Made by a program: the position numbers and the translations under genes. The notes beneath the pieces were generated by a model. It did not search any database. It saw only the letters and a program-made list of their open reading frames with translations, and was not told the DNA's origin. DNA of 64,000 bases from Bianqueaceae bacterium. Its GTDB lineage: Bacteria > Bacillota > Clostridia > Lachnospirales > Bianqueaceae. Position 1 is the stretch's first letter; every line of letters begins with the position of its first letter. The DNA is taken from the NCBI GenBank assembly GCA_045599825.1, contig JAZRWR010000113.1, positions 3,938 to 67,937 on the forward strand, read 5' to 3'. This document shows, one piece after another, positions 1,802 through 37,252 of the stretch.

Positions 1802-4768
<2,967 letters not shown>

Positions 4769-17519: not shown

Positions 17520-17548
17520 TTGCGAAAACAGAAATTGAGTGTTATTAT
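17520..17548 (+). promoter_or_regulatory. Putative sigma-70-type promoter for the phosphatase/kinase operon
   Basis: TTGCGA (17520-17525), a 17-nt spacer, then TATTAT (17543-17548), within an AT-rich divergent intergenic region. Confidence 0.4.
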
Positions 17549-17584: not shown

Positions 17585-18328
17585 GTGGTCGATATTCACT
17601 GTCACATTTTACCGGCCGTGGACGACGGTTCATCCGCTCTGTCCGAATCACTGGAGATGGCCCGTCTGGCTGCGGCAGGAGGCACGGATACCGTCGTGTG
17701 CACGCCTCACTGCAATGTCCCCTACGAGCTTCGCGGGAACTTCCGCGGGGCCACGCTGAACGGACAGGTGGACATGCTCCGGCAGGCGCTCCGGGAGGCG
17801 GAGATCCCGCTTCAGCTCCTTTGCGGGGCCGAAATCATGACTACGCCCGAGCTTCCGGAGCTTATCCGCGCGCATCGCCTGCAGACCCTGGCCGACAGCC
17901 GCTACCTCCTGATGGAATTCTTTTTCGATGAGCCGCTCGGCTTTATCGACCGCATGCTCGGAGAGGTGCTGAACGCAGGCCTGGTGCCGGTCCTTGCGCA
18001 TCCTGAGCGCTACGACGCCGTGCAGGAAATGCCCTCCGTGCTGGGAGACTGGTTCGGCGCCGGCATCATTCTGCAAATCAATAAGGGCTCGGTCCTGGGC
18101 CGTCTCGGCAGCGGTGCCGAAGAGTGCTCCCACTGGATCCTGTCCCACGGTCTTGCCCACGTGCTGGCCAGTGACGCGCATTCGTCGGTCAGCCGTACGC
18201 CGCACATGCGGGAGCTTTCCCGCAGTCTGGAGAAGGAAATAGGCCATCGCTATACAAATATTCTGCTTGAGGAAAACCCGCGCCGTATCATTGAAGACCG
18301 GGACATCCTGCGGGCTGAACAGGAATAA
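17585..18328 (+). CDS. CpsB/YwqE-type PHP-family protein-tyrosine phosphatase
   Basis: VDIHCHILPAVDDGS and CTPH / LAHPERY / LASDAHS metal-binding His blocks are present. GTG 17585 lies 5 nt after GAGGAGG. Confidence 0.85.
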   Translation: MVDIHCHILPAVDDGSSALSESLEMARLAAAGGTDTVVCTPHCNVPYELRGNFRGATLNGQVDMLRQALREAEIPLQLLCGAEIMTTPELPELIRAHRLQTLADSRYLLMEFFFDEPLGFIDRMLGEVLNAGLVPVLAHPERYDAVQEMPSVLGDWFGAGIILQINKGSVLGRLGSGAEECSHWILSHGLAHVLASDAHSSVSRTPHMRELSRSLEKEIGHRYTNILLEENPRRIIEDRDILRAEQE

Positions 18329-18339
18329 GAGGATTTTCT

Positions 18340-19143
18340 ATGCGAACACTGGAAAGAGTAACTATCTTGCTGTTTGTGGTCATGCTCCTGGTTTTTGCGG
18401 GAGTCAAGGCCTACAGCTTCATCCGCATTGACCGTACCGCCCCTGTCTTCCACTGCGATTCCGCTGAGCTCGAGGTGAGCATGAGTGCGGACGAAACAGC
18501 GCTTCTGGCGGGCCTTACCGCCACGGATGACCGCGACGGTGACCTGACGGACCAGATCATGATCAAGGGCATCACGCAGCTCATCACCGACAATACGGCC
18601 AAAATCAGCTATATCGTCTTTGATTCCGCCAACAATATGGCAAGCTATACACGCGTTCTGCGCTATACCGACTACGAAAAGCCGCATTTCAGCCTCTCCG
18701 CGCCGTTGGTATTCCCCCTGGGCTCCAGCATCATCCTGACGGAGCGCCTGGGAGCCTCCGACCTGCGCGAGGGCGATCTGACCGGCAATATCTGCATCGT
18801 TTCGCAGAATGTCACCAAGAACATCGAGGGCATTTACAGTGTAACCGTGCAGGTCACGAATTCCCTGGGCGATACCGAAACCCTGGCCCTTCCGCTGGTC
18901 ATCTGCAAGGAGGCCTCCTACGGCCAGATGATCACGCTCTCCGATTACCTGATCTACGTGGAGCAGGGGACCGAGCTTCATCCCGAGGATTATCTGCTGG
19001 CGGCCGCCAACCGCTTCGGCCAGCCGATGTCGACCGAGGTCGTGGAGATCGGCGGCAGTGTGGATACCTCCCGCGCCGGTGTGGGCAGCTTTGTCTACAG
19101 CTATGCGGGTTATTCGGTCTATCTGACCGTTGTGGTGAAATAA
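18340..19143 (+). CDS. Membrane-anchored hypothetical protein with Ig-like (DUF5011-type) repeats
   Basis: N-terminal TM helix. LTATDDRDGDLTDQI is typical of bacterial Ig-like surface domains. Confidence 0.45.
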   Translation: MRTLERVTILLFVVMLLVFAGVKAYSFIRIDRTAPVFHCDSAELEVSMSADETALLAGLTATDDRDGDLTDQIMIKGITQLITDNTAKISYIVFDSANNMASYTRVLRYTDYEKPHFSLSAPLVFPLGSSIILTERLGASDLREGDLTGNICIVSQNVTKNIEGIYSVTVQVTNSLGDTETLALPLVICKEASYGQMITLSDYLIYVEQGTELHPEDYLLAAANRFGQPMSTEVVEIGGSVDTSRAGVGSFVYSYAGYSVYLTVVVK

Positions 19144-19152
19144 GGAGGAGAA

Positions 19153-20685
19153 ATGGCAGAAAACAGAAATGTCCGGTTCAGTCTCTCCGATATCGAACCG
19201 CTTTGCGTTGTCAAAAACCTGATTGAAAAATACTGGCTGATCATCCTGGCCTTTTTGATCGGCCTGATGGCCAGCAATCTGCTTCTGACGGCTATGTCGT
19301 CTCAAAGCTACACGAGCACAGCCACCTTTTCGGTAACGGCGCGCAGCTCCTCCAGCGGCACGGGCAGCTACTATGTCAACGCCAATGTCGCCTCCGAGGT
19401 CGTCAGCATCTATTCCGAGGTCTTTTCCAGCCGTCTGATGACGGACGCCATCCATGAAAATCTGGGCAGCGTCAACGGCACGATCTCGACCGCCGTGCTG
19501 GGCAGCACCAATCTGATCCGCGTCAGCGTCAACAGCCGGAACCCCAAGGATACGCTCCTCATCATGCAGTATATCATCGAGCACTACGCCGATGTCTCCG
19601 AATACGTTTCCAACACGGCTGTGCTGAGTCCGCTGTCCACGCCCAACATCAACGTGGTCGCCGAAAAGTCCTATAATATCGGGAAAAGCAGCCTGCTGGC
19701 CGGTATTGCCGGCGCGCTTCTGATGGTCGTTCTTCTGGTATTCCGTCACCTGAACGAGGACACCATCATGACGCCCGAGGGCGCCAAGAACAAGCTGGAC
19801 GCCAAGGTCATTACCAGCGTTCCTCACGAGACGCAGGGAGGCAGCCGCCTCATTACGTCCAGCAGCCAGCGCCGCTCCGAAATGGGCAAGCGCACCAACC
19901 TTCTGATCACCTCGCCTACCACCAGCTTTACCTTTACGGAGGCCATCCACAAGTGCGCCACCCGTTTCGAAAGCGAATATGACGCCGGCAAGCGCGTCTT
20001 CCTTTTCTCGAGCGTGTCCGAATCCGAGGGCAAGTCCACCATGGCCGCTAATGTCGCCCTTTCGCTGGCGATGCGCGGCGTCAAGGTGCTATTCATCGAT
20101 ATGGACCTCCGCCGTCCCGTTCAGACCGAGCTTTTGGGCAAGAAGATCGCCGAGGAGCAGGAGCTTGGCTACATGCTCAACAACGGCTTCACCTCCCGGA
20201 AGATCCTGGAAAACGTCATCCACGACGAAAAGACCGGACTGGACACTCTGCTGTCCGCGCACACCTACAAGAACATGGTGGAGCTGATCTCCTCCCCCGT
20301 GGTATCGCGGCTGATCAAGCGCGCCCGCGGCGAATACAATTATATCATCATCGACTCGGCTCCTCTCGGATACTTCTCCGACAGTGAGCTTCTGTCCGAC
20401 CTTTCCGACGCGTCCGTCCTGGTCGTCCGTCAGGACACTGTTTCGGCCGCGAACATCAACGACGCCATCGATGACCTGCGCGAGGGCAGGGCGGAGTTCC
20501 TGGGCGTGCTGCTGAATGACATGAACAGCTTCTCCGATGTCAGCGCCAATGCCGGCTACGGCTATGGCCGGGGCTACGGTTACGGCAAGTACGGCAAGTA
20601 CGGGAAATACGGCAAGTACGGCAAATACGGCAAGTACGGCAAGTACGACCGCCCGTCCGCTGAAGGAGAGGAGGCGAAGGCATGA
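19153..20685 (+). CDS. Fused Wzz (PCP) transmembrane modulator / BY-family protein-tyrosine autokinase with a (YGK)n tail, paralog 1
   Basis: Two TM helices flank a Wzz-like loop. Walker A SESEGKST, Walker A' VLFIDMDLRRP and Walker B YIIIDSAP are present. C-terminal tail is GYGYGRGYGYGKYGKYGKYGKYGKYGKYGKY. Confidence 0.85.
   Translation: MAENRNVRFSLSDIEPLCVVKNLIEKYWLIILAFLIGLMASNLLLTAMSSQSYTSTATFSVTARSSSSGTGSYYVNANVASEVVSIYSEVFSSRLMTDAIHENLGSVNGTISTAVLGSTNLIRVSVNSRNPKDTLLIMQYIIEHYADVSEYVSNTAVLSPLSTPNINVVAEKSYNIGKSSLLAGIAGALLMVVLLVFRHLNEDTIMTPEGAKNKLDAKVITSVPHETQGGSRLITSSSQRRSEMGKRTNLLITSPTTSFTFTEAIHKCATRFESEYDAGKRVFLFSSVSESEGKSTMAANVALSLAMRGVKVLFIDMDLRRPVQTELLGKKIAEEQELGYMLNNGFTSRKILENVIHDEKTGLDTLLSAHTYKNMVELISSPVVSRLIKRARGEYNYIIIDSAPLGYFSDSELLSDLSDASVLVVRQDTVSAANINDAIDDLREGRAEFLGVLLNDMNSFSDVSANAGYGYGRGYGYGKYGKYGKYGKYGKYGKYGKYDRPSAEGEEAKA
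20554..20646 (+). repeat. In-frame tandem 9-nt repeat (GGCAAGTAC-like) encoding the Tyr cluster of kinase 1
   Basis: ggcaagtac / gggaaatac / ggcaaatac units are repeated about 7 times head to tail. Confidence 0.9.
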
Positions 20686-22286
20686 GCGAAAACTATTCAG
20701 CTGACAGCAAGAAAAGTCCCGACAACCGCGTAGACCTGTTCGCCTTCTGGCGCCGCTTCCGTCCCTTCCTGGTCCGCTTCTGGTACCTTCCGCTGCTTCT
20801 GGCCCTGGTCGGCGCGCTCTTCATGGCCCTGCGCGCCCGCCGCAGCTTCGTCCCGAGATACCGCAGTGAAGCTATTTTCTCCGTTGCGGTCACCGATACC
20901 GACAGCCTGGACGTCTCTACCTACAGCTACTATTACGACAGTGCCGCCGCCAAGCAGGCAACGGCCACCTTCCCCTACATCCTCTCCAGCGACATCATGC
21001 AGGAGCTTCTGAAGGACCGTCTGAATGTGCCCTATCTGAACGGCAGCGTGCAGGCGAAGAGCATCGCCGATACGAACTTTATCGAGCTTTCGGTGACCTC
21101 GACGAACCCGGACGACGCCTACAGCATCCTGCAGGCCGTCATGGAGGTCTATCCGCAGGTCAGCCGCAAGGTCGTCGGCGAAACGCGCTTTACTGTCACG
21201 CAGCCTGCGCATAAATCGACGACGCCCTACAACAGCCTGAGCTGGAAGCGTCCGGCCGTTCTGGGTGCCTTTGCCGGCTTCGTGCTGGGTGTCGGCATTC
21301 TGCTGATTATGACGCTTCTGCGCCGCACAATCCTTTCGGAGGACGACGTCAAGCGCACCTCCAACCTGAACTGCCTCGGCCGCATTACCAACGACACCGA
21401 GAAAAAGCGTACCGAAACCGACGGCGAGGCAGGCATCCTGGTCACGCGTCTGCACACCGACTCGGCCTTCAGCGAATCCCTGCGCGGCTTCCGTCTGAAG
21501 ATCACCCGTGACCTCGGCCCCAAGGAAAAGATCATCATGTTTACCAGCTCCCTGCCCTCCGAGGGCAAGAGCTCTCTGGCGGCCAACACGGCCCTGCTTC
21601 TGGCCGGACACGGCAAGAAGGTGCTGGTGGTCGACGCCGACCTTCGCGGCCCCTCCATCAAGAGCATTCTGGGCATTACGGAGCCTTCCGCCGGCCTCGG
21701 CGAATGGCTGTCCGGCAAGTCCGAGGGGCTGAACTTCCTGCGCTACAAGGAAACCAGTCTGTATGTCATGGGCTCGGGCGAGGCCATCCCCGACCCCACG
21801 CCTATCCTGGTTCATGCCAACATCAACAACCTTTTCCAGCTGCTCCGGACGATGTTCGACTACGTCGTGGTCGACACGCCTCCCTGCACGCTGATGAGCG
21901 ACGCCGCGGCTTTCTGCCCTCTGGTGGACCGCGTCGTCTATGTCATCCGTGAGGATTATGCCTCTGTCTCCCAGGTCTCGGACGGTATCGAGAACCTGTC
22001 CGAGCACGGCGCCAAGCTGGCCGGCTTCGTGCTGAACCGCTGCGGCATCGGCGAGGCCTCCTCGTACTACTACGGCAAGTACGGCTACGGCAAGTACGGC
22101 TACGGCAAGTACGGCTACGGTAAATACGGCTACAGCAAGTACAGCTACGGCAAATACGGCTACGGCCGCTACAGCTACGGCAAGTACGGCTATGCCGGCT
22201 ACGGTTACGGCTACGGAACGTCCGAAGCCGATGAAGCCGAAGAAAACAACGAAAAACAGGAGGAAGCGCCGGATAGCGAGTCCTGA
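20682..22286 (+). CDS. Fused Wzz (PCP) modulator / BY-family protein-tyrosine autokinase with an extended Tyr-Gly-Lys tail, paralog 2
   Basis: ATGA start/stop overlap with paralog 1. Two TM helices. Walker A SLPSEGKSS, Walker A' VLVVDADLRGP and Walker B YVVVDTPP are present. Tail is YYYGKYGYGKYGYGKYGYGKYGYSKYSYGKYGYGRYSYGKYGYAGYGYGYG followed by an acidic end. Confidence 0.85.
   Translation: MSENYSADSKKSPDNRVDLFAFWRRFRPFLVRFWYLPLLLALVGALFMALRARRSFVPRYRSEAIFSVAVTDTDSLDVSTYSYYYDSAAAKQATATFPYILSSDIMQELLKDRLNVPYLNGSVQAKSIADTNFIELSVTSTNPDDAYSILQAVMEVYPQVSRKVVGETRFTVTQPAHKSTTPYNSLSWKRPAVLGAFAGFVLGVGILLIMTLLRRTILSEDDVKRTSNLNCLGRITNDTEKKRTETDGEAGILVTRLHTDSAFSESLRGFRLKITRDLGPKEKIIMFTSSLPSEGKSSLAANTALLLAGHGKKVLVVDADLRGPSIKSILGITEPSAGLGEWLSGKSEGLNFLRYKETSLYVMGSGEAIPDPTPILVHANINNLFQLLRTMFDYVVVDTPPCTLMSDAAAFCPLVDRVVYVIREDYASVSQVSDGIENLSEHGAKLAGFVLNRCGIGEASSYYYGKYGYGKYGYGKYGYGKYGYSKYSYGKYGYGRYSYGKYGYAGYGYGYGTSEADEAEENNEKQEEAPDSES
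22065..22217 (+). repeat. In-frame tandem 15-nt repeat (TACGGCAAGTACGGC-like) encoding the Tyr cluster of kinase 2
   Basis: About 10 near-identical units are visible at 22065-22217. Confidence 0.9.
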
Positions 22287-22313: not shown

Positions 22314-23993
22314 GTGAAGAAAAAGCTCAGTGACATCAAGGAGCTGTGGCAGGAGATTGTCTGGATCTACCGCTACGGAAAGAATTACACGGGCGCCATT
22401 CTGCTTTATGTTCTGCTGGGGCTTCTGGCCACGGCAGTGGGCCTTTTCAGCTCGGTCGTCTCCAAGTACCTGATCGACGCGGTCACGTCCGGAGATGTTT
22501 CCCGCATCAGCCTGATCATTGCGCTCTATGTGGGCTTCGGTGTGACGCGTATCCTGCTCGGGGCGCTGACGAAGCGCTTCCGCGCGCATACCGGCGTGAG
22601 GGCCACCAACGAAATCCGCGAGGACCTTTTCGGCCGTTTCCTGGCCATCGACTGGCAGGCATCCCTGGACTACCATTCCGGAGACCTTTTAAGCCGCATC
22701 AACAGCGATGTCGCCACCGTGGCCGACAGCATCCTCGGCCTGATTCCGAGCCTGATCACCGCGGGCCTGCAGTTTGCGGGCGCCCTTTTGGTGATTCTGA
22801 TCTACGATCCGATGATGGCGCTGTGGGCACTGATTTCAGCCCCTGTCACGGTCCTGTTCTCGCGTCTTTTTCTGACGAAGATGCGCGCCCTCGGCCAGAA
22901 GGTCCGGGAGCGGCAGGCGGATCTGACCGGCTTTTACGAGGAAGCCCTGCAGAATCTGCAGGCTATCAAGGCCTTTCATCTGAACGGCACCATGGAGGAG
23001 CGTCTGGCCGGGCTGCAGCAGCTGTACAAGGATGTCTATCTGGAGAGCGCTGATTTCTCCGTCTGGATGGGCGTTGTCATGTCCGTGCTCGGCTTTGCGA
23101 CCTCGGGCCTCTGCTTTGCCTGGGGCGCGTTCCGCCTGTGGACAGGCTATATTTCCTTTGGCACGATGGTGCTTTTCATCCAGATGGCAGGCACGGTAAC
23201 GAGCGCCTTCAGCTCTTTGGTTTCGATCGTCCCAGGCGCCGTGAGCGCCGCGGTTTCGGCCGGCCGTCTGATGAAAATTCTGGAGCTTCCCGCCGAAAAT
23301 TCCGAGACGGACGAGGAGACAGAGGCCTTTATCGAAAAAGCGTTTACGGCCGGTGCGGGCCTGGTGCTGGAGAACGTCTCTTTTGCGTACCGCGAGGGCA
23401 TTCCGGTGCTGGAGCAGCTGAATCTGACGGCTGAAAACGGTCAGATCATCGGTATTATCGCGGAAAGCGGCGGCGGCAAGACGACACTGATCCGCCTGCT
23501 TCTGGGGCTGGTAAGCCCTGACGGAGGAGAGGCCTTCGTGCTTCTTTCCGACGGGACGAGGAAGCCGCTCAGCCCTGCGCTGCGTCCGCTTTTCTCCTAC
23601 GTGGCCCAGGAAAAGGTCGTCTTTTCCGGCACGGTGGCAGAGAGCCTGCGGCTGGGAAATCCCGCAGCAGGCGATGAAGCTCTGTGGGACGCGCTGGAAC
23701 GAGCCTGCGCTGCCGATTTCGTACGCGCGCTGCCCGAGGGCATCGATACGAAGCTGGGCGAGCGCGGTGCGGGTCTGAGTGAGGGACAGATCCAGCGTTT
23801 GGCCATCGCCCGGGCCATCCTGAGTCCCGCGCCCCTGCTCCTTCTGGACGAGGCTACCTCGGCCCTTGATTTTGAGACCGAAAAAAAGGTGATCCACGGT
23901 CTGCTGGCCGGCGAGGAGCGCCGACGCACGGTCATCGCAACAACGCACCGCCCGACGGTGCTCGAATACTGCGATGCCGTCATTCAATTATAA
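22314..23993 (+). CDS. ABC exporter, fused permease/ATPase (type I exporter, 559 aa)
   Basis: Six-TM N-terminal domain. P-loop AESGGGKTT, signature LSEGQIQRLAIARA and Walker B LLLLDEATSALD are present. GTG start follows AAAGGAGG. Confidence 0.85.
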   Translation: MKKKLSDIKELWQEIVWIYRYGKNYTGAILLYVLLGLLATAVGLFSSVVSKYLIDAVTSGDVSRISLIIALYVGFGVTRILLGALTKRFRAHTGVRATNEIREDLFGRFLAIDWQASLDYHSGDLLSRINSDVATVADSILGLIPSLITAGLQFAGALLVILIYDPMMALWALISAPVTVLFSRLFLTKMRALGQKVRERQADLTGFYEEALQNLQAIKAFHLNGTMEERLAGLQQLYKDVYLESADFSVWMGVVMSVLGFATSGLCFAWGAFRLWTGYISFGTMVLFIQMAGTVTSAFSSLVSIVPGAVSAAVSAGRLMKILELPAENSETDEETEAFIEKAFTAGAGLVLENVSFAYREGIPVLEQLNLTAENGQIIGIIAESGGGKTTLIRLLLGLVSPDGGEAFVLLSDGTRKPLSPALRPLFSYVAQEKVVFSGTVAESLRLGNPAAGDEALWDALERACAADFVRALPEGIDTKLGERGAGLSEGQIQRLAIARAILSPAPLLLLDEATSALDFETEKKVIHGLLAGEERRRTVIATTHRPTVLEYCDAVIQL

Positions 23994-24459
23994 TATGATG
24001 ATGCACGAAGTATCTGCCGCGGCTGAAGTGCTGCCGCGTATGAAAAAGGCGCTGTCGGAGTTCGGCCTGTGCCGCCTGGTCGTCACCGGAGGCAGCATGC
24101 TGCCCTTCCTGCACTCCAGGCGCGACGCGGTCCTGCTGGAGCCCTTTGACGGTACGGCAAGAGTCGGCGACATCCTGTTCTATCAGCGCAGCGAAAATTT
24201 CTGCGTGCTGCACCGGGTGCATCGCATGGGCCGGGACGGCCTTATGTACTGCACCGGCGATATGCAAAGTCAGCTGGAGCCTGTGCGGCCTGAGCAGGTG
24301 ATCGCACGCGTGCAGGCTGTCGAGGTCAAGGGCAGACGCACGCCCGTAACGGCCTTTTCCTACCGCCTGCGAAGCGCGCTGTGGTATCCCACCCGGCCGA
24401 TTCGGCCGCTGATGGCGCGCGTCTATCTGTCCCTTCGGCAAAAAAACGTTAACAAGTAA
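23974..24459 (+). CDS. S26 (SipW/ER-type or SodX-like) signal-peptidase-family protease, apparently soluble
   Basis: GGSMLPFL matches the G.SM.P catalytic Ser block. GDILFY and VLHRVHR match the S26B GDI...HRV His block. No N-terminal TM helix is visible. The start overlaps the ABC gene end by 20 nt. Confidence 0.6.
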   Translation: MPSFNYNMMMHEVSAAAEVLPRMKKALSEFGLCRLVVTGGSMLPFLHSRRDAVLLEPFDGTARVGDILFYQRSENFCVLHRVHRMGRDGLMYCTGDMQSQLEPVRPEQVIARVQAVEVKGRRTPVTAFSYRLRSALWYPTRPIRPLMARVYLSLRQKNVNK

Positions 24460-24470
24460 GAGGAAGCAGC

Positions 24471-25187
24471 ATGAAAAAAGAAACGAGTCCGCTTTTTAAA
24501 GTCCTGCACGGGGTTTTTTTACTGCTCGTTGCGGTAGTGGCGGGTCTCGCGGTGCTTCGTGCCTGCCAGCTTGGCTGGTTTGAGAGAAAACAGCCCGCTG
24601 AAAGCGATATCGCTTCCGAAAGCGAGGAGAGCAAGGCTTTGCTGGAGCTGGACGGCAAGTTCAGGCTCATCAGCGTGATGACGCTCTCCGGCTCCTTCTA
24701 CGAGGACGCAAGCAACGACCCGGTCGAAAAGGTGCTGACTGTTCTGCTGCAATACAGCGGCGAAAAGGCCGTCCGCTCGGCTGAGCTCGTGCTGAACGGC
24801 TGCTATCATTTTGTGCTGAGTGCGGTGCTGCCCGGCGACTCGATTTATGTGCTTGAGCAGAACCGAAGCGTTTATCCGCAGGGAATGACCATTGCCTCGG
24901 CAGAGCTTTGCTCCGTGGAATACTATGAGGAGCTGCCCGGCCTGATGGAGGAGCAGCTTTCGATTCTCGTGAACGGTAAGAGCCTGACGGTGCAGAACCG
25001 AAGCGACAGTGAGATGTTTCCCGGCGGCACGCTGGTGTATAAAAATGAATACGAGGGCTGTCTGCTGGGCGGAATCAGCTACACGCTGGAGCTCCCGCCG
25101 CTCATCCCGGGCCAGAGCGCAGAGCTTACGGCGGAGCGCTGCCGCGGCAGCGGCTCGCGGCTGATGTTCATTTTGCCCGCCGACTGA
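24471..25187 (+). CDS. Hypothetical N-terminally membrane-anchored protein (238 aa)
   Basis: One TM helix (VFLLLVAVVAGLAVL) followed by a beta-rich ectodomain. No family recognised. Confidence 0.45.
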   Translation: MKKETSPLFKVLHGVFLLLVAVVAGLAVLRACQLGWFERKQPAESDIASESEESKALLELDGKFRLISVMTLSGSFYEDASNDPVEKVLTVLLQYSGEKAVRSAELVLNGCYHFVLSAVLPGDSIYVLEQNRSVYPQGMTIASAELCSVEYYEELPGLMEEQLSILVNGKSLTVQNRSDSEMFPGGTLVYKNEYEGCLLGGISYTLELPPLIPGQSAELTAERCRGSGSRLMFILPAD

Positions 25188-25199
25188 GAAACTTGTCCC

Positions 25200-25228
25200 T
25201 TGTGAAAATCACGCAAAACCTGTATAAT
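25200..25228 (+). promoter_or_regulatory. Putative internal sigma-70-type promoter upstream of the radical SAM gene
   Basis: TTGTGA (25200-25205), a 17-nt spacer, then TATAAT (25223-25228), 25 nt before ATG 25254. Confidence 0.5.
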
Positions 25229-25253
25229 ATATTCCAAGACCGAGGACGCGACT

Positions 25254-26396
25254 ATGCTTGACAACCGACCCGCCGGATATGTGCCCCGTTCGGAGCCCAT
25301 GATTTCCAGCCATCTGAACGCGCTGGGCATTCGCAAGGGCCTGCCTGTTTCCGGAAACTTTGAGCTGACTGCCCGCTGCAATTTCGACTGCCGCATGTGC
25401 TATGTGCACCAGAACGGCGATCTGCGCCGGCGGGAGCTCTCCGCCGATACCTGGCTGGGTCTCGCATCCGACGCGCGCGACCTGGGGATGATGTTCCTGC
25501 TGCTGACCGGCGGCGAGCCCTTCATCCGTGAGGACTTTCCTTATATCTATGAGGAGCTCGTCAGGATGGGGCTGGTCGTCTCCGTCAACACCAACGCCTC
25601 TCTTTACAGCGAAGAGCTGCGCGAGCTGTTTCTGAAATATCCGCCTTCACGCCTGAACGTCACGCTGTACGGTGCGTCCGAGGAGACCTACCGCGCGCTC
25701 TGCCGCAGCGCTTCGTACGAAAAGGTCGTCTCCAATCTTCGTTCGATGAAGGCCGACGGCCTGCAGGTGCGTCTAAACGTGTCTCTCACGCCCTGGAACG
25801 TGGCCGACATGGAGGGCATCCATCAGATCGCCGCCGATATCGGTCTGAACGCCAAGGGTTCGGCCTATATGTATCCCCCGGTGCGCCTCACGGAAAGCTA
25901 CGGCGAAAACGCGGCGCGCTTCAGCCCGGAGGAGGCCGGCCGTGTTTTCGCGGCCTGGAACCGCCTGAACGAAGGCGATGAGCGCTTCCTCGCGAAGGCA
26001 GAGGCAATGGGACGCTGGGACAACTGTGAGGAGATTCTGGCGGACAGCCCCGAAAACGGCGTCCGCTGCCGCGCCGGCCGCAGCAGCTTCTGGCTGACCT
26101 GGGAGGGCAAAATGCTTCCCTGCGGCACCATGGATATCGAGACCTCCGACGCTTTGAGCCTGGGCTTTGCCAAGGCCTGGGAGGAGGTGCGTGCGCGGAC
26201 GGCAGCCATTCGCCTGCCCGCCGAGTGCGCATCCTGCAGTCACCGTCAGAACTGCAGTCTGTGCGCGTCCATCTGTCGCTGCGAAAGCGGAGGCTTTGAC
26301 AAACGGCCCGAATATCTTTGCAAAATGGAGAAAAGCCGCTATGAGGAAACTCAGAAGCTGGCCCAACTGATTAAGGAGGAGAACCATGCAGATTAA
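25254..26396 (+). CDS. Radical SAM enzyme with a C-terminal SPASM domain
   Basis: CNFDCRMC (CX3CX2C) cluster and GGEPF are present. C-terminal Cys-rich region is CRAGRSSF...LPCG...CASCSHRQNCSLCASICRC. Confidence 0.85.
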   Translation: MLDNRPAGYVPRSEPMISSHLNALGIRKGLPVSGNFELTARCNFDCRMCYVHQNGDLRRRELSADTWLGLASDARDLGMMFLLLTGGEPFIREDFPYIYEELVRMGLVVSVNTNASLYSEELRELFLKYPPSRLNVTLYGASEETYRALCRSASYEKVVSNLRSMKADGLQVRLNVSLTPWNVADMEGIHQIAADIGLNAKGSAYMYPPVRLTESYGENAARFSPEEAGRVFAAWNRLNEGDERFLAKAEAMGRWDNCEEILADSPENGVRCRAGRSSFWLTWEGKMLPCGTMDIETSDALSLGFAKAWEEVRARTAAIRLPAECASCSHRQNCSLCASICRCESGGFDKRPEYLCKMEKSRYEETQKLAQLIKEENHAD

Positions 26397-26649
26397 AGGT
26401 GAATTTATCAAACGAGACATTGCGGGAGAAAGCTTTCTGGTGCCTGTCGGCGAAAGCCAGCACCGCTTCCCCGGACTGATTGCCTTGAACGAAGTGGCTT
26501 CCTTTGTCTGGGACCGGCTTCCTTCCTGTGAGACGGAGGCGCAGATCGTTGACGCCCTTCTGGACGAGTACGAGGTCGAGCGCTGGGAAGCGGAAGCCGA
26601 CGTGGCGGAGCTCATCGCCAAAATGACGGAAATGGGCCTGATTGAATAA
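26386..26649 (+). CDS. PqqD-family protein (RiPP recognition element-like), 87 aa
   Basis: Pattern present: FLVPVG...LIALNEVASFVWDRL....TEAQIVDALLDEYEV....AEADVAELIAKMTEMGLI. The start overlaps the rSAM stop by 11 nt. Confidence 0.75.
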   Translation: MQIKGEFIKRDIAGESFLVPVGESQHRFPGLIALNEVASFVWDRLPSCETEAQIVDALLDEYEVERWEAEADVAELIAKMTEMGLIE

Positions 26650-26661
26650 AGAATATGCACG

Positions 26662-26694
26662 AGGCCGGGGAGCTTTCCTCGGCCTTTATTGTTT
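26662..26694 (+). terminator. Rho-independent terminator after the rSAM-PqqD pair
   Basis: AGGCCGGGGA (26662-26671) pairs with TCCTCGGCCT (26676-85) with one G-U pair, followed by TTTATTGTTT. Confidence 0.6.
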
Positions 26695-26754: not shown

Positions 26755-26783
26755 TTGACTGAGAGCTGAAACTGAGATATACT
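26755..26783 (+). promoter_or_regulatory. Putative sigma-70-type promoter for the Lgt-like/vWA unit
   Basis: TTGACT (26755-26760), a 17-nt spacer, then TATACT (26778-26783). Confidence 0.5.
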
Positions 26784-26867: not shown

Positions 26868-27509
26868 ATGAGTTTATTGATTTATTTAGGCCTCGGGGCC
26901 GCCATGATGTATCTGGTCATGTTTTTTCTGCAGGACCGGTACAAGATCAAGCCAGGAAAGCTTCTCATGTTTGATCTCCTGCTTACCGTCTGCGGTGTCG
27001 CCGGTGTCAAGCTGATGTATTTTGTTGAAAACGGAAGTTTCGCGGGGCTTTCCTTCTTCGGAGCAGTGCTGATTACGCCGCTTCTTCTGATTCCCGTTGC
27101 GCTTCTTCTGAAGGAACGTGTTCCCGCCGTCCTGGATCTTTCCGCCCCGGCCATCTGCGCTATGCTTGGCGTCATGAAGATTCAGTGTGTGGTAGAAGGC
27201 TGCTGCCGGGGCCGCATGATGGACCTCTTCGGTCTGCTTTTGCCGTTCCGCTTTCCCAGTCAGTTGGTTGAGCTCGCGAATGCCTGCGTGCTGGTTGTGG
27301 TTTTGGTGTGTCTGGCGCGCAAAAAGGCCAATTACGGCCATATTTATCCGCTGTTTCTGGTTCTCTACGGAATCACGCGCTTTGTCTGGAACCTTTTCCG
27401 TGAGGCAGAGCCTTTCATCGGGCCTTTGCCTATCGGTAATTTCTGGTCTTTGATTTCTCTGATTATCGGCCTTATCTGGCTTTTCGCCCTGAAAAAGAAG
27501 AAGGCGTGA
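26868..27509 (+). CDS. Prolipoprotein diacylglyceryl transferase (Lgt) family paralog, short form (213 aa)
   Basis: Multi-TM protein. KIQCVVEGCCRGR resembles the RIGCFL.GCC.G block of short Lgt-family proteins. FPSQLVE resembles the Lgt P(T/S)QLYE motif. YGITRFVWNLFRE resembles Y...RF..EF.R. Confidence 0.5.
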   Translation: MSLLIYLGLGAAMMYLVMFFLQDRYKIKPGKLLMFDLLLTVCGVAGVKLMYFVENGSFAGLSFFGAVLITPLLLIPVALLLKERVPAVLDLSAPAICAMLGVMKIQCVVEGCCRGRMMDLFGLLLPFRFPSQLVELANACVLVVVLVCLARKKANYGHIYPLFLVLYGITRFVWNLFREAEPFIGPLPIGNFWSLISLIIGLIWLFALKKKKA

Positions 27510-27603
27510 TTTTTTGCATTTCGGTTTGTATGCACTAACGAATGTGCATGTTCTAACTGATATTAGTACTTTGGTAAAATACACTGTTGAAAGGTAGTAA
27601 GTT

Positions 27604-30510
27604 ATGAAGCAGTTAAAGAAGACCTTCGCTTTGTTCCTTTCCATGCTTCTTTGCCTGTCTGCCGTTCCCGCCGTCGGCGCTTTTGCCGATGAGGGCGGCT
27701 CCGACGAGGAAAGCGGTCTGATTTTGGACAAGTGGTACACTCCAAAAGCCGATTCCGGTGAAGGCATCCTGACGCTCGAAACCTACGTCAAGGGTACGGT
27801 CGTTCATACGACTACGGTAGTCAGCCAGCCGCTTGACATTGTTCTGGTGCTGGATGTATCCGGCTCCATGGATGATTCCCTTTCCGCCAGCGGCGCCAGC
27901 GGATATTCGGTCAGGACGGGTGTCTCTTATAACAACGCGAACCAGCGGAATTTCTATTTCCGCGAAGGAAACACCTATTACCGCGTTTATGCGCACAGAA
28001 CGGGCTTCGGTCTGGATGCTTATTATTACCTGAGCTTTACCAAGGACGGAACAGAATACTTCCTGAAGGGCGATTCGTATACGGAGGATATTTCTTCCGC
28101 TTGGGTCAGCAGCGGCAGCACAGCGATTTACACGGAAACGCTTTACTATTCGCTGGGGTACTCTCCCTCTAAGCTGGATGTATTAAAGAGCGCCGTAGCC
28201 GGCCTGATCGATACAGTCTATGCCGATGCCATTGCCAATGAGGTTGATCACCGTATCAGCATCGTCACCTTCGCTTCTTCGGCAAATACGGTTGACGAGC
28301 TGGTATCCGTAAGCGAAAACTATGACAGGCTGATAAAGGATACGGGCGCTCTGAGAGCAAACGGTGCTACGGCGGCCGACTACGGTCTTCAATCTGCCGA
28401 TACCGTTATGCAGGACGCCCGTTCCGACAGCAACAGGGTCGTCATCTTCTTTACTGACGGTGAGCCGAATCATAACAGCGGCTTCGACGGATCGGTTGCG
28501 ACCAAGGCAATCACGGCAGCTAAGAGCCTGAAGGATGACGGAGCCAAGGTCTATTCCGTCGGCGTATATGATGCGAGCTCCGGTGGAGGCGGCTGCGGAG
28601 GCGGCTGTGACGATGAGGCCGACCTTACCACTGTCATGAACTACATGCACGCCATCTCCTCCAACTATCCCGCTGCGACTTCTTATACGAGCAGTACCAT
28701 GGGCACCGGCAGCGATCTGGGTTATTCGCTGATGGCCGGTAATGCAGGCGAGCTTTCCGGTATTTTTGAGACAATTACCAAGGAGGCGGTCGAGGGTTCG
28801 GCCCGCATTCAGCTTGATGCCGATGCGGTCGTGCTGGATAAAATTTCCGACTATTTTGAGCTGCCTGAAGGCATTGAAGAAAAAGACATTAAGGTTTATT
28901 ATGCCGATTATCTCGGCAACGACAGCTGGAGTGAGAAGCGGGCTTTCACGGCTGCTGCATTGGAGCTTGATGTGAAGAATAAGCAGGTCCGCGTTTCCAA
29001 CTTTGACTTTGCTTACTACTTCGTTCCCGAGGACGGCGCGGCCAAAAACAGCAACGGAATTAACGGCCGCAAGCTGATTATTGAAATCCCCATTGTCGAT
29101 AACGGCACCGGCTTCGGAGATGTGCCTACCAATACGGGCGATTCCGGTGTTTATCAGAATGAAGAGAAGGTCGAAAACGGCGAGAGCGTTGATCGCTATC
29201 CCATCCCTGAAACGACCTTCCCGAGCTTCACTGTTATTCATTCCTCCGACAGTTCTGCGGATAAGATTCGTCTTTCCTCCGTCGGTACTGAGGGCTTTGA
29301 TCTTTCTGCCATCGTGAAGGAGGGCCATCTTTACGGTGGCTACTATCACTACGAAAACAGCACGGTAGGGGCTCCCTATACCTCGAGCGGTCTGACGCTT
29401 CAGCCTGCGGACGGTGCGGTATACTTCCTGCAGGAGGTGCCCAAGACCTATCTGCGTCCGGCCACTCTGTCCCTTTCCTCCAAGGGTGTTAAGTATACCT
29501 GGATGCTGACCGCTATTGACAGCCTGAACTACAAGCTGGCCGGCTTTGATGTGGCCGGTAAGGATATCAGTCTGACCGTACCGGAAGCGGCGGCGGAGCA
29601 GGACAGCTTCTGCAAGAGCAGCGCGGACGAGATGGACGCGGTCTGCGAGACAATCCATGTGGAAATGGTCTACGGAAAGACGTACGATTACGATGTTCTG
29701 ATGGTTTCCGGCAACCTCGACGGTTACATAGTCTGCCTGCGCTTCAGCAATCCGGAGAGCTATATCGATAACGGAAGCTTTGATGTTCATCCCTATTTTG
29801 TCACACCCGATAATGTCAAGGTTACCGGCGATACGGTCCGTACGTTGACCTACACTTCAGCCAATCTGACTGAGACTGCGTCCGGAACGGGTGCGAAGAA
29901 CCCTGTTTCCTCGGATGTGACGGATTTTGACGAATATGTCTCCGCTGCGCCCTATGCGCCTCTCCGGCTGATGAGCTTCGTGCCTCTGCGTGCGGTTCCC
30001 TCCAAGTCTCTTGAGGTTGTAGAGCCTGCGCCTCAGGCTCCCGTCGAAGAACCCGAGGCCGTTGAGGAGCCTGCAGGAGAGCCTGAGGTCGCTGAGGAAC
30101 CTGCGGAGGAATCTGCGGTCGTCGAAGAGCCGGCGGAAGAAACCGCGGAAATCGCTCCCTCGGATGCGTCTGATTATGAAGCCCCTGAGCAGGTCATTCC
30201 GGAGGAAGAGCCCGCTGAGGAGCCTGAGCAGAAGGAAAGAGTTACGCCGGTTATTCCGGATCCCGTCGTTGTAGAGCCCGAGGAAGAGCCTGCTCTTATT
30301 GAAAAGCCTGCCGAAGACGCGGCTGAAGCGCCCGTTGATGAAGCGGAGGATGTGCCGGCTGAGGAGCCTGCGGATACGGAGCCGGAAGCTGAGCACGCGG
30401 ATGAGGCTTCGACCGAAGAGGCCGTTATTATGCCTGCGATCAGCTGGCTGCTTCGCGTTCTGACTGCGGTCAGCACCTTCCTGGCCCGTCTGTTCGGTTT
30501 TGTGAAATAA
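27604..30510 (+). CDS. Secreted/cell-surface von Willebrand factor A domain protein with a Pro/Glu-rich stalk and a C-terminal hydrophobic anchor (968 aa)
   Basis: Signal peptide MKQLKKTFALFLSMLLCLSAVPAVGAFA. vWA MIDAS block VLVLDVSGSMDD, then IVTFASSA, GATAADYG, VVIFFTDGEPN. The C-terminus is an EEPAE-type repeat region followed by ISWLLRVLTAVSTFLARLFGFVK. No LPXTG motif. Confidence 0.8.
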   Translation: MKQLKKTFALFLSMLLCLSAVPAVGAFADEGGSDEESGLILDKWYTPKADSGEGILTLETYVKGTVVHTTTVVSQPLDIVLVLDVSGSMDDSLSASGASGYSVRTGVSYNNANQRNFYFREGNTYYRVYAHRTGFGLDAYYYLSFTKDGTEYFLKGDSYTEDISSAWVSSGSTAIYTETLYYSLGYSPSKLDVLKSAVAGLIDTVYADAIANEVDHRISIVTFASSANTVDELVSVSENYDRLIKDTGALRANGATAADYGLQSADTVMQDARSDSNRVVIFFTDGEPNHNSGFDGSVATKAITAAKSLKDDGAKVYSVGVYDASSGGGGCGGGCDDEADLTTVMNYMHAISSNYPAATSYTSSTMGTGSDLGYSLMAGNAGELSGIFETITKEAVEGSARIQLDADAVVLDKISDYFELPEGIEEKDIKVYYADYLGNDSWSEKRAFTAAALELDVKNKQVRVSNFDFAYYFVPEDGAAKNSNGINGRKLIIEIPIVDNGTGFGDVPTNTGDSGVYQNEEKVENGESVDRYPIPETTFPSFTVIHSSDSSADKIRLSSVGTEGFDLSAIVKEGHLYGGYYHYENSTVGAPYTSSGLTLQPADGAVYFLQEVPKTYLRPATLSLSSKGVKYTWMLTAIDSLNYKLAGFDVAGKDISLTVPEAAAEQDSFCKSSADEMDAVCETIHVEMVYGKTYDYDVLMVSGNLDGYIVCLRFSNPESYIDNGSFDVHPYFVTPDNVKVTGDTVRTLTYTSANLTETASGTGAKNPVSSDVTDFDEYVSAAPYAPLRLMSFVPLRAVPSKSLEVVEPAPQAPVEEPEAVEEPAGEPEVAEEPAEESAVVEEPAEETAEIAPSDASDYEAPEQVIPEEEPAEEPEQKERVTPVIPDPVVVEPEEEPALIEKPAEDAAEAPVDEAEDVPAEEPADTEPEAEHADEASTEEAVIMPAISWLLRVLTAVSTFLARLFGFVK
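30010..30420 (+). repeat. Low-complexity Pro/Glu/Ala-rich repeat region (EEPAE-like units) inside the vWA gene
   Basis: VEEPEAVEEPAGEPEVAEEPAEESAVVEEPAEETAE...EEEPAEEPE...EEPADTEPE. Confidence 0.8.
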
Positions 30511-34632: not shown

Positions 34633-34661
34633 ATATTAGCACAGTACCTTTGCAGTGTCAA
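34633..34661 (-). promoter_or_regulatory. Near-consensus sigma-70 promoter of the tRNA operon
   Basis: On the minus strand: TTGACA (34661-34656), a 17-nt spacer, then TAATAT (34638-34633). The -35 element overlaps the stop codon of the upstream GTPase-NYN gene. Confidence 0.6.
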
Positions 34662-37252
34662 GGATTATTTGAAAGATTTTCGATGAAATTGTCGATTTGG
34701 GCCAGAACGCGGCCTAATTCCGCGCGGAATTCGCGGGAAGAGAGGCGCAGCACGCCTGCGCGCAGGGCGCTCAGCTGGATCAGGGCATCCGAGGTGACCA
34801 CGCGCACGCGCAGGTCCCGGCCGAGGCCGCTGACGAAGCGCTCGATAAAGGCATCGGCGGTTTCGCGCTCCCGCGTGTAGACCACGTGGATGCCGCCCTC
34901 GTCGCTGCGTTCGCCCTCGTTCTCGGGCACGCGGTAGGCGTCGAAGACGACCAGAAGCTGACATCCGGTGAAGGACTGGTAGTTTACCAGCGCACGGATG
35001 AGGCGGTCCCGGGCCATGGAAAGGTCCGCAGCAGCCAGCTGCTTTAGCTCGTCCCAGGAGAAGATTAGGTTGTAGCCGTCGACCAGGAAGAAGCTGCCTT
35101 CGCCGCCGAAGAGGCCGAGGCGGACAGGGTCCTCGTCGATTTCCTCGGAGAGATAAAGGCGGCGCTCCTCACGGGTGAAGAGGGGACGCTTGATCGGCCC
35201 GAATTCGCGCAGCATGATGGCCTCAAGCTCTCTGTCGTCCAGCGAGCGAGGCACGGAGGAGGGAGCTTTTTCGGCAGACTCCGGGGCGGACTTGTCCTTG
35301 CGGAAGGGAAGGTGCATGTAGGCGGGGACTTCGTTCCAGGGGACGGTGCGCCCGGCTCCGTGCGAGCAGAAGACCGAGTCGGGGGTGTCGGCCAGGTTGT
35401 CGTAGGGACGGTAAGCGGCGGCTTCTATGACCTCGCCGGCATTGTGGCAGGGCGACCAGCCATCGGGCTCGAGACTCAGGCTGCCGCGTCCGGCGGTGTA
35501 GGCGGCCAGCTCACGCGCGTAGCCGTTCAGGGTCGCAACGGGTCCGCGGCCGCACAGAAGGACCGTTTCGCTGCCCTCGGGGGCCTCCATGGAGGCGTGG
35601 CGGAGCTTGAGATCGGTCATGGCTCGTCCCAGCTGCTCGGCGGGAAGCTGCAGGCGGAAGCGGTACATCGGCTCCAGCAGGGCCAGCTTGCCCTCGGCGC
35701 GGGCCTGCATGAGGCCCTGGCGGACGGCCCGGTAGGTGGCCTGGCGGAAGTCGCCGCCCTCCGTGTGCTTCTCGTGCGCACGGCCGGCCACGAGGCTGAG
35801 GCGGACATCGCTTAAGGGCGCGCCGATCAGGACGCCGCGGTGCTCCTTTTCGGCCAGATGCGTCAGGATCAGGCGCTGCCAGCCGCGGGCCAGCTCGTCC
35901 TCGGCAAGCTCCGAGCACAGCTCCAGACCGCTGCCTTCGGGCAGCGGCTCCATCATCAGATGCACCTCGGCGTAATGGCGCAGCGGCTCAAAATGACCGA
36001 CGCCCTCCACGGAGCCGGTCAGGGTCTCGCGGTACAGAATACGGCCCTCCGCAGCGCTGATGCGGATGCCGAAGCGCTCCAGGACGGTCGCCTCCAGCAC
36101 CTCGGTCTGGACGGCACCCATCAGATCGGCCTCGATTTCCTCGCTTTCGCGGTTCCAGCGCAGCCGAAGCGCGGGGTCCTCCTCGGCCAGCCCGCGGATC
36201 GTCTCAAAGACGGCTTTCGCGTCCGCTCCTTCCTCGGGGATCAGACGGTAGCTCATGACCGGCTTTAAGCGCGGCGCCGGAGCGCTTTCCTCGGGCGATG
36301 CCGCCGCGCCGAAATATCGGCCGCTCATAAGACTGCCGAGGCCGGTCAGCGCCGCGCAGTCGCCGGCCTCCAGCCGTTCGGCGGCCTGGAACCGGGCCCC
36401 CTTCAGGAGCCGGATCTGCGTCACCTTTTCGGCGGCGTTCGTGCCGTCTGGCAGGGCGATGCTGACGGAGTCGCGGACAGTCAGGCTGCCCGACAAAAGC
36501 TTGATATGTGCCAGCCGGACCTCGTTTTCGTCCCGGCTGATTTTGAAGCAGAAGGCCCGGAGCGCGCCGTCCGCAGGATATTCGCGCGCCAGTCCGGCCA
36601 GACAGTTTAAGAGCGCCTCGGTGCCGACGTTCTTCAGCCCCGAGCCGAAAAAGCAGGGGAAGAGGCGGCGTGACATGACGGCGGAGGCGATGTCCTCGTC
36701 GCTCAGGCAGCCCTCGCGCTCGTAGCGCATCAGCATCGCCTCGTCGCTTAGGGCGGCGGCTTCCTCGCGCAGCGCCCGTTCGCGGTCAAAGCGGACGATA
36801 TCGCGGTCGAGCTCCCTGCGAAGACCCTCCAGAAGCTCCTCCTCGTCCAAACGGGAAAAGTCCATTTTGGACACGAAGAGGAGGGTGGGCACGCGGTATT
36901 CTTTTAACAGCCGCCACAGCGTCACCGTGTGGGCCTGCACGCCGTCCAGACCGCTGATGACCAGCACGGCGGCGTCCAACGCCAGAATGCTGCGCTCGGC
37001 CTCGGCGGAAAAGTCGATGTGGCCGGGCGTGTCCAGAAGCGTCATGCGCGCACCGGCGTATTCAAGGGAGGCCGTGCCGGTGAAAATCGTGATGCCGCGG
37101 CGCTTTTCGAGCTCGTGCGCATCCATCACGCTGGTCCGGCCGTTCACGCTGCCGGCACTGCGGATGGCGCCGCTGTGGAAGAGCAGGGCTTCCGCCAGCG
37201 TCGTTTTGCCCGCGTCCACATGGGCTACCAGTCCTACGGTCAGCTTCTTCAT
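34658..37252 (-). CDS. TetM/EF-G-family translational GTPase fused to a C-terminal Rae1/YacP-type NYN endoribonuclease domain (864 aa)
   Basis: N-terminus: VGLVAHVDAGKTTLAEALLFHSGAI..GSV..GTSVMD..ELEKRRGITI, DTPGHIDF, VSKMD (G1-G4), followed by EF-G domain II-V-length sequence. C-terminal ~165 aa: FFLVDGYNLIFSW..LK, YQSFTGCQLLVVFDA, YTRERETADAFIE, VRVVTSD. These align block by block with B. subtilis YacP/Rae1. AAAGGAG lies 9 nt before ATG 37252. Confidence 0.85.
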   Translation of the reverse strand: MKKLTVGLVAHVDAGKTTLAEALLFHSGAIRSAGSVNGRTSVMDAHELEKRRGITIFTGTASLEYAGARMTLLDTPGHIDFSAEAERSILALDAAVLVISGLDGVQAHTVTLWRLLKEYRVPTLLFVSKMDFSRLDEEELLEGLRRELDRDIVRFDRERALREEAAALSDEAMLMRYEREGCLSDEDIASAVMSRRLFPCFFGSGLKNVGTEALLNCLAGLAREYPADGALRAFCFKISRDENEVRLAHIKLLSGSLTVRDSVSIALPDGTNAAEKVTQIRLLKGARFQAAERLEAGDCAALTGLGSLMSGRYFGAAASPEESAPAPRLKPVMSYRLIPEEGADAKAVFETIRGLAEEDPALRLRWNRESEEIEADLMGAVQTEVLEATVLERFGIRISAAEGRILYRETLTGSVEGVGHFEPLRHYAEVHLMMEPLPEGSGLELCSELAEDELARGWQRLILTHLAEKEHRGVLIGAPLSDVRLSLVAGRAHEKHTEGGDFRQATYRAVRQGLMQARAEGKLALLEPMYRFRLQLPAEQLGRAMTDLKLRHASMEAPEGSETVLLCGRGPVATLNGYARELAAYTAGRGSLSLEPDGWSPCHNAGEVIEAAAYRPYDNLADTPDSVFCSHGAGRTVPWNEVPAYMHLPFRKDKSAPESAEKAPSSVPRSLDDRELEAIMLREFGPIKRPLFTREERRLYLSEEIDEDPVRLGLFGGEGSFFLVDGYNLIFSWDELKQLAAADLSMARDRLIRALVNYQSFTGCQLLVVFDAYRVPENEGERSDEGGIHVVYTRERETADAFIERFVSGLGRDLRVRVVTSDALIQLSALRAGVLRLSSREFRAELGRVLAQIDNFIENLSNNP

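Follow-up and report, generated by a model that had tools for sequence, protein, structure and literature searches.

Production of capsule and exopolysaccharide is switched mainly by bacterial tyrosine kinases (BY-kinases) together with their polysaccharide co-polymerases (PCPs). In textbook accounts the BY-kinase ring is homo-oligomeric, and a bacterium can hold two such systems, Wzc and Etk in E. coli, PtkA and EpsB in B. subtilis. In this study, we analyzed a window of 64,000 nucleotides (nt) from a Bianqueaceae bacterium of the Clostridia, on the 69-kb contig C113 of a metagenome-assembled genome (MAG; 1.8 Mb, 121 contigs, 79% complete). The subject is a stretch of this window, a complete copy of a portable clostridial module composed of a CpsB-type phosphatase, an immunoglobulin (Ig)-like membrane protein, two tandem BY-kinases each fused to a co-polymerase (hereafter K1 and K2), and an ABC exporter. 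We consider it probable that K1 and K2 form a hetero-oligomeric, Wzc-like co-polymerase and autokinase ring, cycled by CpsB and acting on a glycan made elsewhere. In Firmicutes, the modulator and kinase domains are normally split between proteins (PMC3245071; PMC2422856). The closest known systems are CpsB/CpsC/CpsD of S. pneumoniae and CapA/CapB/CapC of S. aureus, which share with the module a PHP-type phosphatase, a two-transmembrane modulator with a short outer domain, and a P-loop kinase with Walker A, A' and B motifs and a C-terminal tyrosine cluster; also as in those systems, the module stands in or beside loci with CpsE and glycosyltransferase (GT) genes in relatives. The best sequence and structure matches of the kinase part are the CapAB chimeras 4JMP, 3BFV, and 2VED. 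Unlike the Cps and Cap systems, modulator and kinase are here one polypeptide, duplicated into two orthogroups of fixed order; the module further includes an Ig-like protein and an MsbA-type ABC exporter, the tails hold 11-22 tyrosines, and no sugar genes adjoin it in this genome.

Two further systems invite comparison. Like Wzc of the E. coli Wzc/Wzb system (PCP-2a), K1 and K2 are single-chain co-polymerases and kinases; the K1 model can be aligned from end to end with the Wzc cryo-electron microscopy structure, and the octameric model of ring autophosphorylation applies. However, their outer domain has ~140 amino acids (aa) against ~400 in Wzc, a Gram-positive envelope offers no Wza-type partner, the phosphatase is of the PHP type and not a low-molecular-weight protein tyrosine phosphatase (LMW-PTP), and Wzc is a homo-octamer whereas a mixed K1/K2 ring is proposed here. 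As for the B. subtilis systems TkmA/PtkA/PtpZ and EpsA/EpsB, the likeness is that of a Firmicute genome with two BY-kinase systems; yet there the proteins are split and encoded at separate loci, while here tandem fused paralogues share a phosphatase. B. subtilis BY-kinases are reported to phosphorylate other proteins as well, UDP-glucose dehydrogenases for example, and to use alternative activators (PMC5035731).

Domains and motifs of the module

The genes of the module and the repeats within them are as follows.

17585-18328, plus strand: CpsB-type PHP phosphotyrosine phosphatase, 247 aa (PF19567, E 1.3e-57)
18340-19143, plus strand: single-pass Ig-like membrane protein, 267 aa, three extracellular domains (PF16403, Big_3)
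19153-20685, plus strand: K1, CpsC-CpsD fusion (PCP and BY-kinase), 510 aa (profiles, motifs, AlphaFold2 model)
20581-20647, plus strand: 9-nt tandem repeat TACGGCAAG, 7.4 copies, encoding the K1 tyrosine cluster
20682-22286, plus strand: K2, CpsC-CpsD fusion, 534 aa, ExxRxxR intact (profiles, motifs)
22070-22216, plus strand: 15-nt, 30-nt, and 6-nt tandem repeats, encoding the K2 tyrosine cluster
22314-23993, plus strand: MsbA-type ABC exporter, six transmembrane helices and a nucleotide-binding domain, no peptidase domain (PF00664, PF00005)

An earlier reading of the window, made from the sequence only, had described two paralogues that each join a two-transmembrane modulator to a complete BY-kinase, and the profile searches bear it out. 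The N-terminal half of K1 matches the Pfam Wzz model PF02706 at residues 20-100 and the CpsC-type model TIGR01006 at residues 14-224; K2 matches TIGR01006 at 36-237, with the Pfam Wzz model, detected in K1, not detected in K2. Against the BY-kinase model TIGR01007 (cut-off 108 bits) K1 scores 106 bits, or 109.7 in a six-frame search, and K2 clears the cut-off with 124.5 bits. Walker A, A' and B read SESEGKST, FIDMDLRRP, and IIIDSAP in K1, and LPSEGKSS, VVDADLRGP, and VVVDTPP in K2. In K1 the hydrophobic segments span residues 17-35 and 176-194, in K2 residues 28-46 and 190-208; in each protein they are some 140 aa apart, as in the split CpsC encoded on contig C49 of the same genome. The predicted topology of both is that of PCP-2b proteins, with two transmembrane helices, a short outer domain, and a juxtamembrane, cytoplasmic activator segment, and the AlphaFold2 model of K1 agrees with it; however, each is a single open reading frame (ORF), whereas PCP-2b modulators are separate from their kinases. 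Fusion had been put down as the proteobacterial Wzc arrangement, but K1 and K2 are not proteobacterial PCP-2a proteins: the Wzc equivalog models score K1 and K2 far under their cut-offs, the large outer domain of PCP-2a is lacking, and the proteins are instead CpsC-CpsD fusions with a short outer loop. The AlphaFold2 model of K1 (predicted local distance difference test, pLDDT, 85) matches full-length E. coli Wzc (7NHR) with an E value of 6e-22 and a template modeling (TM) score of ~0.5, and the CapAB chimeras with TM scores of 0.82-0.90 by target length; both K1 and K2 align to a chimera of the CapA C-terminus with CapB from the activator segment on.

The long tyrosine clusters are also present as first described, (YGK)7 in K1, with 11 tyrosines in the last 80 aa, and 22 tyrosines over the same span in K2, but they are not unusual: clade medians are 12-13 tyrosines in the last 70 aa, and long (YGK/YGR)n tails characterize the family at large. 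By motifs and tyrosine clusters, K1 and K2 both qualify as predicted BY-kinases. Same-genus orthologues carry 12 and 20 tyrosines in their last 85 aa, with another repeat pattern; together with the near-perfect repeats that encode the clusters here, this fits length variation by slippage.

The gene that opens the module starts with GTG at 17585, with GAGGAGGA just upstream. Its product had been named a PHP-type CpsB followed by an Ig-like membrane protein, an assignment that profiles and models sustain for both. Model PF19567 (CpsB_CapC) covers CpsB end to end (profile positions 1-234 of 234), while the Cps4B model NF041488 gives 120.8 bits, under its equivalog cut-off. The sequence holds DIHCH (H5, H7), H42, and SDAH, which we take to be the metal-binding His and Asp residues, in the roles they have in Cps4B; with the full-length profile match, these motifs place the protein in the CpsB family. 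The Ig-like protein combines Bact_surface_Ig-like (PF16403) and Big_3 matches, and its AlphaFold2 model (pLDDT 94) shows a transmembrane helix at 2-29 followed by three beta-sandwich domains; a Foldseek search against the PDB returned only generic tandem Ig and cadherin-like matches and no functional clue. In three relatives a second Ig-like gene lies 3' of K2 or convergent to it (L086:12849-13523, L089:12582-13424, and L034), so that two Ig-like proteins flank the kinases.

K1 and K2 as a conserved pair

With K1 as query and one genome per species, at least 599 pattern matches and at least 382 confirmed relatives were obtained; 80 loci were kept. Oscillospiraceae, Acutalibacteraceae, Lachnospiraceae (with Blautia schinkii DSM 10518 among them), Erysipelotrichaceae, and other families are represented. 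With the window proteins mapped onto these loci, CpsB, Ig, K1, and K2 recur as a string across the set, in many cases with the ABC exporter next. The fused tandem pair is the normal form of the module in hundreds of gut and rumen Clostridia genomes. The special status first given to this locus is thereby largely lost, since it had been made to depend on fused tandem paralogues not being the norm of the clade. The papers on BY-kinases that were searched gave no account of tandem fused kinases from Clostridia, and the twin-kinase module is apparently undescribed.

Among the 36 well-flanked relatives, those with at least 6 kb on both sides, the Ig-like gene is a near-invariant partner of the kinase pair (34/36), CpsB is found in 23, and the ABC exporter in 22. 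In the window the exporter gene starts 27 nt past K2; used as a query, it recovered five orthologues (44-58% identity), all five directly 3' of K2, and among loci that combine radical SAM and HprK-like genes it occurs in 7/8 with a kinase module and in 0/7 without a kinase, a pattern seen in related genomes that are not independent. The ABC exporter thus belongs to the module, as a dedicated downstream partner of the kinases.

The module is accessory and patchy: with K1 as query, the K1-K2 form was recovered from 4 of the 18 genomes of the family and from one of two of the genus, the genome without it being 95% complete. Across 121 genomes of the same taxonomic order, 52 kinase domains score above the TIGR01007 cut-off; 18 of them belong to open frames of 460 aa or more, the other 34 to frames of 216-328 aa. 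Fused pairs stand side by side in 5 of the 120 other genomes. Such patchiness, with the lack of sugar genes on the 69-kb contig, is what would be expected if the module were a decaying or silent remnant of a capsule locus after sugar-gene loss; we regard this as extremely unlikely. The frames are intact and all catalytic motifs are present. Ratios of nonsynonymous to synonymous substitution rates (dN/dS) against the same-genus copies, 0.18 for K1, 0.19 for K2, and 0.25 for the exporter, show these predicted genes to be under purifying selection. The closest relatives in other genera (43-58% identity), moreover, have retained all five genes, and no more than one or two sugar genes lie near them: CapD in L008 and L136, CpsE and a GT in L009, LCP in L014, and an epimerase in L133.

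Signs of joint function come from the pairing itself. In a tree of 155 kinase homologues, K1 and K2 fall into separate clades of 76 members each, with support of 0.78 for K1 and 1.0 for K2. K1 precedes K2 in 68 loci, one locus being tallied as reversed, and loci with a single copy lie mostly at contig ends. Median gaps are 4 nt between Ig and K1, 10.5 nt between K1 and K2, and 13 nt between K2 and ABC; in the window, stop and start of the kinase genes overlap in the ATGA already noted, at 20682-20685. K1 and K2 of one genome are ~25% identical, against 43-51% between each and its own orthologue in the nearest other genera (~80% in the same genus), so that the duplication is old and both copies have been retained. 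Two MAGs even carry K1 and K2 as a single ORF, at L083:9875-13096 (1073 aa) and L087:5062-8205 (1047 aa), each preceded by an Ig-like gene; with 60% identity between them, the two fusions are taken to be inherited, and assembly error is an improbable explanation.

Catalytic motifs are maintained in both clades (76 sequences each): the Walker A lysine in 73 K1 and 74 K2 sequences, the A' DxD in at least 74, and the Walker B aspartate in all 76. The P-loop of K1 has a clade-specific form, T-S-V-x-E-N-E-G-K-S-T, and that of K2 is near-canonical, P-[GS]-E-G-K-[ST]-T. The ring-contact motif is asymmetric. In the CapB octamer, E23, R26, and R29 of helix alpha2 contact the neighboring subunit (PMC2422856). 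The K2 clade retains this ExxRxxR, with E, R, and R in 67, 66, and 70 of 76 sequences, whereas the K1 clade reads E-x-x-[H/K]-x-x-A, the glutamate kept and both arginines replaced; the window itself has ESLRGFR in K2 and EAIHKCA in K1. At the column equivalent to CapB E133, K1 has E in 30 and D in 15 sequences and K2 has K in 22 and E in 18, a position both poorly conserved and uncertainly aligned. The fixed K1-K2 order, the natural fusions, and the loss of the ring motif in one partner support a mixed ring, and a heteromeric ring, one of the options raised at the outset, gains from these co-retained, ordered orthogroups. Would two separate homo-oligomeric rings, built by sub-functionalized duplicates for different polymers or conditions, serve equally well? 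Walker motifs and tyrosine tails kept in nearly all members of both clades would suit them, as would the fact that two independent BY-kinase systems per bacterium are common. We nonetheless find this arrangement unlikely, given the fixed adjacent order in 68 loci at near-zero spacing, the single Ig-like, CpsB, and ABC gene per kinase pair, the conserved K1-K2 fusions in one polypeptide, and a K1 that lacks the alpha2 ring-contact arginines.

Sugar genes and the peptide-maturation cassette

The module was first described as an orphan, with no polysaccharide-assembly genes nearby, and this is true of the whole contig: profile searches found no Bac_transf, GT1, or GT2 match on C113. Detachment is not unusual in the family, however. 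At least one recognizable polysaccharide gene flanks the module in 20 of the 36 well-flanked relatives (~56%), the Pfam families being UDP-glucose 4-epimerase-like, GT1, UDP-glucose dehydrogenase, CapD, DegT, LCP, and pyruvyl transferase, and CpsE, sortase, and LMW-PTP genes occur as further neighbors; 13 of the 36 have an ORF of at least 1000 aa. In ten (~28%), neither polysaccharide nor peptide-cassette genes are found and housekeeping genes surround the module; no GT is among the 25 commonest of 94 families at these ten loci (80 neighbors scanned). Detached copies are therefore common. A non-capsule role had been suggested for the kinases, and it agrees with the lack of sugar genes and the apparent co-transcription with exporter, S26-like, radical SAM, and PqqD genes, but not with the ~56% of relatives whose module sits in exopolysaccharide or capsule loci. 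A classical Wzx/Wzy locus, absent from C113, is present in many relatives, and in Blautia schinkii DSM 10518 (L035) CpsB-Ig-K1-K2 closes a polysaccharide locus. On the idea that the exporter replaces Wzx, GT-block loci with and without it were compared; they encode Wzy-like proteins of ~400 aa and end too early for an absence of Wzx to be seen.

Elsewhere in the genome, sugar genes do occur. No Wzx, Wzy, or CpsE gene lies on C113, but CpsE is encoded on contigs C49 and C82, and Polysacc_synt has two matches genome-wide, on C103 and C43, none of them on C113; Wzy_C has no match anywhere in the 79%-complete MAG. C49 holds a split CpsB, CpsC, and CpsD set with CpsE two genes further on; a 575-aa protein encoded 5' of its cpsB was considered as an LCP and ruled out, with no match to PF03816. 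The sole GT-rich locus is on C82, with 9 of the 11 assembled GT1/GT2 matches, CpsE, ABC-2 transporter genes (Wzm/Wzt-like), a Wzy/EpsG-like membrane protein, and LCP. C82 shows no BY-kinase match and no co-polymerase of its own.

The following features lie around and beyond the module in the window.

17520-17548, plus strand: promoter-like site 5' of cpsB, TTGCGA-17-TATTAT with TG extension (consensus match alone)
23974-26649, plus strand: S26-like peptidase, 238-aa membrane protein, radical SAM, and PqqD genes (profiles; overlaps or short gaps)
26661-26686, plus strand: terminator-like hairpin 3' of pqqD, 11 pairs, 7 of them G-C (consensus match alone)
26755-26783: second promoter-like site, 5' of the Lgt-like gene (consensus match alone)
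26868-27509: Lgt-like gene (profile search)

Judged by spacing and consensus scans, a single transcription unit seems to run through nine genes, cpsB to pqqD, the hairpin at 26661-26686 being the sole strong terminator-like site. The genes from the S26-like peptidase to PqqD are not part of the kinase module proper. After PqqD come the Lgt-like gene, a gene for a 968-aa vWA protein, one for a P-loop protein that matches no family, a second PqqD, and NTP_transf_5; the downstream gene list given earlier agrees with this, the Lgt-like gene being the one addition. HprK-related NCBIfam models gave no match to the HprK-like protein of the window at E <= 0.01.

These neighbors recall pseudomycoidin, in whose biosynthesis the HprK-type kinase PsmK and the uncharacterized nucleotidyltransferase PsmN add phosphate and then hexose to the peptide C-terminus (PMC6993621). 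The likeness concerns the neighboring genes alone (HprK-like P-loop protein, PqqD-type chaperones, NTP_transf_5-type protein) and is offered as a lead, with no claim of membership; unlike that lasso-peptide system, the window has no lasso cyclase. Association of the kinase pair with such cassettes is recurrent but not universal. A radical SAM or HprK-like gene is found in 14 of the 36 well-flanked relatives (39%), where the genes for radical SAM, HprK-like, PqqD, and 238-aa proteins lie beside the kinases or are interspersed with them, and at least one of these or NTP_transf_5 in 17; neither radical SAM nor HprK occurs within 6-10 kb in the other 22. With radical SAM as query, 15 well-flanked loci with an HprK-like gene were found, eight of which hold a BY-kinase module, six in the K1-K2 form and two in the split CpsC/CpsD form. 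This adjacency is far above the expectation from one or two kinase loci per genome. In the two split cases (L110 and L113, ~9.6-16 kb), PqqD, radical SAM, HprK-like, S26-like, and ABC genes stand beside split CpsB, CpsD, and CpsC, so that the cassette associates with BY-kinase modules generally, not just with the fused pair.

It could be, then, that the kinases, the Ig-like protein, and the exporter serve the downstream peptide-maturation genes, the product being a modified peptide, a peptide-linked glycoconjugate, or the vWA adhesin in place of a lipid-primed capsule. Besides the apparent nine-gene transcription unit and the shared loci, interleaved orders such as Ig-K1-K2-PqqD-rSAM-ABC-HprK in L116 (rSAM, radical SAM) point this way, and the PsmK/PsmN chemistry (PMC6993621) would bridge such cassettes and glycan machinery. 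We hold this to be quite unlikely nonetheless: the 22 kinase loci without a radical SAM or HprK gene and the 7/15 cassette loci without a kinase speak against it, many copies of the module head ordinary CpsE and GT blocks, and co-location is explicable as a shared cell-surface island.

Other observations were made on these gene sets. In a Vescimonas MAG (L014:11782-16039), the genes after module and exporter encode a sortase, an LCP ligase, an EmrE-type transporter, an LMW phosphotyrosine phosphatase (thus a phosphatase of a second type), and a LysR regulator. A cassette without kinases on contig C9 of the present genome (1659-10467) contains genes for a 2275-aa surface protein, a homologue of the 238-aa membrane protein, an HprK-like protein, and a 91-aa Cys-rich small ORF (3390-3665), and at the end of the GT-rich locus a paralogue of NTP_transf_5, 36% identical to that of the window, lies beside LCP (C82:17250-18368). 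In the window, the Lgt-family paralogue is directly 5' of the 968-aa vWA surface protein gene, in a segment (26868-30510) where G+C falls to ~0.53, and at 34658-37252, minus strand, Pfam identifies a fusion of an EF-G/TetM-like GTPase with a YacP/NYN nuclease domain; a homologue is found near the kinase module in L021 and L084.

A proposed mixed ring and its significance

How might the module work? In the model we favor, K1 and K2 would assemble into one mixed ring resembling those of Wzc and CapAB, and their tails would be phosphorylated in trans by neighboring active sites within it; the phosphorylated ring would open, and re-form once CpsB has stripped the phosphates, a cycle that would gate polymerization or export of a surface glycopolymer. 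The Ig-like protein may be an extracellular partner, and the MsbA-type exporter a dedicated transporter, perhaps one that flips lipid-linked sugars. In this genome the adjoining sugar genes would have been lost and the module would be transcribed with a peptide-maturation cassette; given these two circumstances, its action is most likely in trans, on a glycan produced elsewhere. A candidate source is C82, the sole GT-rich locus and one without its own co-polymerase or kinase.

Several points weigh against this model. No experiment on any member of the module was found in the papers searched, and the trans target is not pinned down, as the MAG is 79% complete. CapAB without the alpha2 contact residues is still an active autokinase in vitro (PMC2422856), and with full catalytic motifs and tails in both K1 and K2, two homomeric rings may form instead. 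With its Wzm/Wzt-like ABC-2 genes, the C82 locus may not need a co-polymerase. Lastly, ~28% of the relatives stand alone and 39% lie beside radical SAM or HprK-like genes, so the job of the module may not always be capsule control.

A bolder scheme would make K1, K2, the Ig-like protein, and the exporter an obligate hetero-oligomeric exporter of a glycan or phosphoglycan primed on a ribosomal peptide and not on undecaprenyl-phosphate. The HprK-like kinase and NTP_transf_5 would add phosphate, then sugar, to a peptide matured by the radical SAM, PqqD, and S26-like proteins. This is highly unlikely in our estimate; if true, it would explain the absence of a CpsE and GT block at this locus.

Overall, the module contradicts the textbook picture of split domains, its modulators and kinases being fused, and presents an ancient, fixed pair of paralogues with the ring motif in one partner only. 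If the mixed ring proves true, it would offer a natural system for asking which subunit phosphorylates which, and it could show how polymer export is tuned by the length of the tails, whose 11-22 tyrosines are encoded in repeats prone to slippage. Its recurrence beside a radical-SAM/HprK-like peptide cassette and giant adhesins suggests that in abundant gut commensals peptide maturation and surface-glycan control are coupled in a way not yet described.

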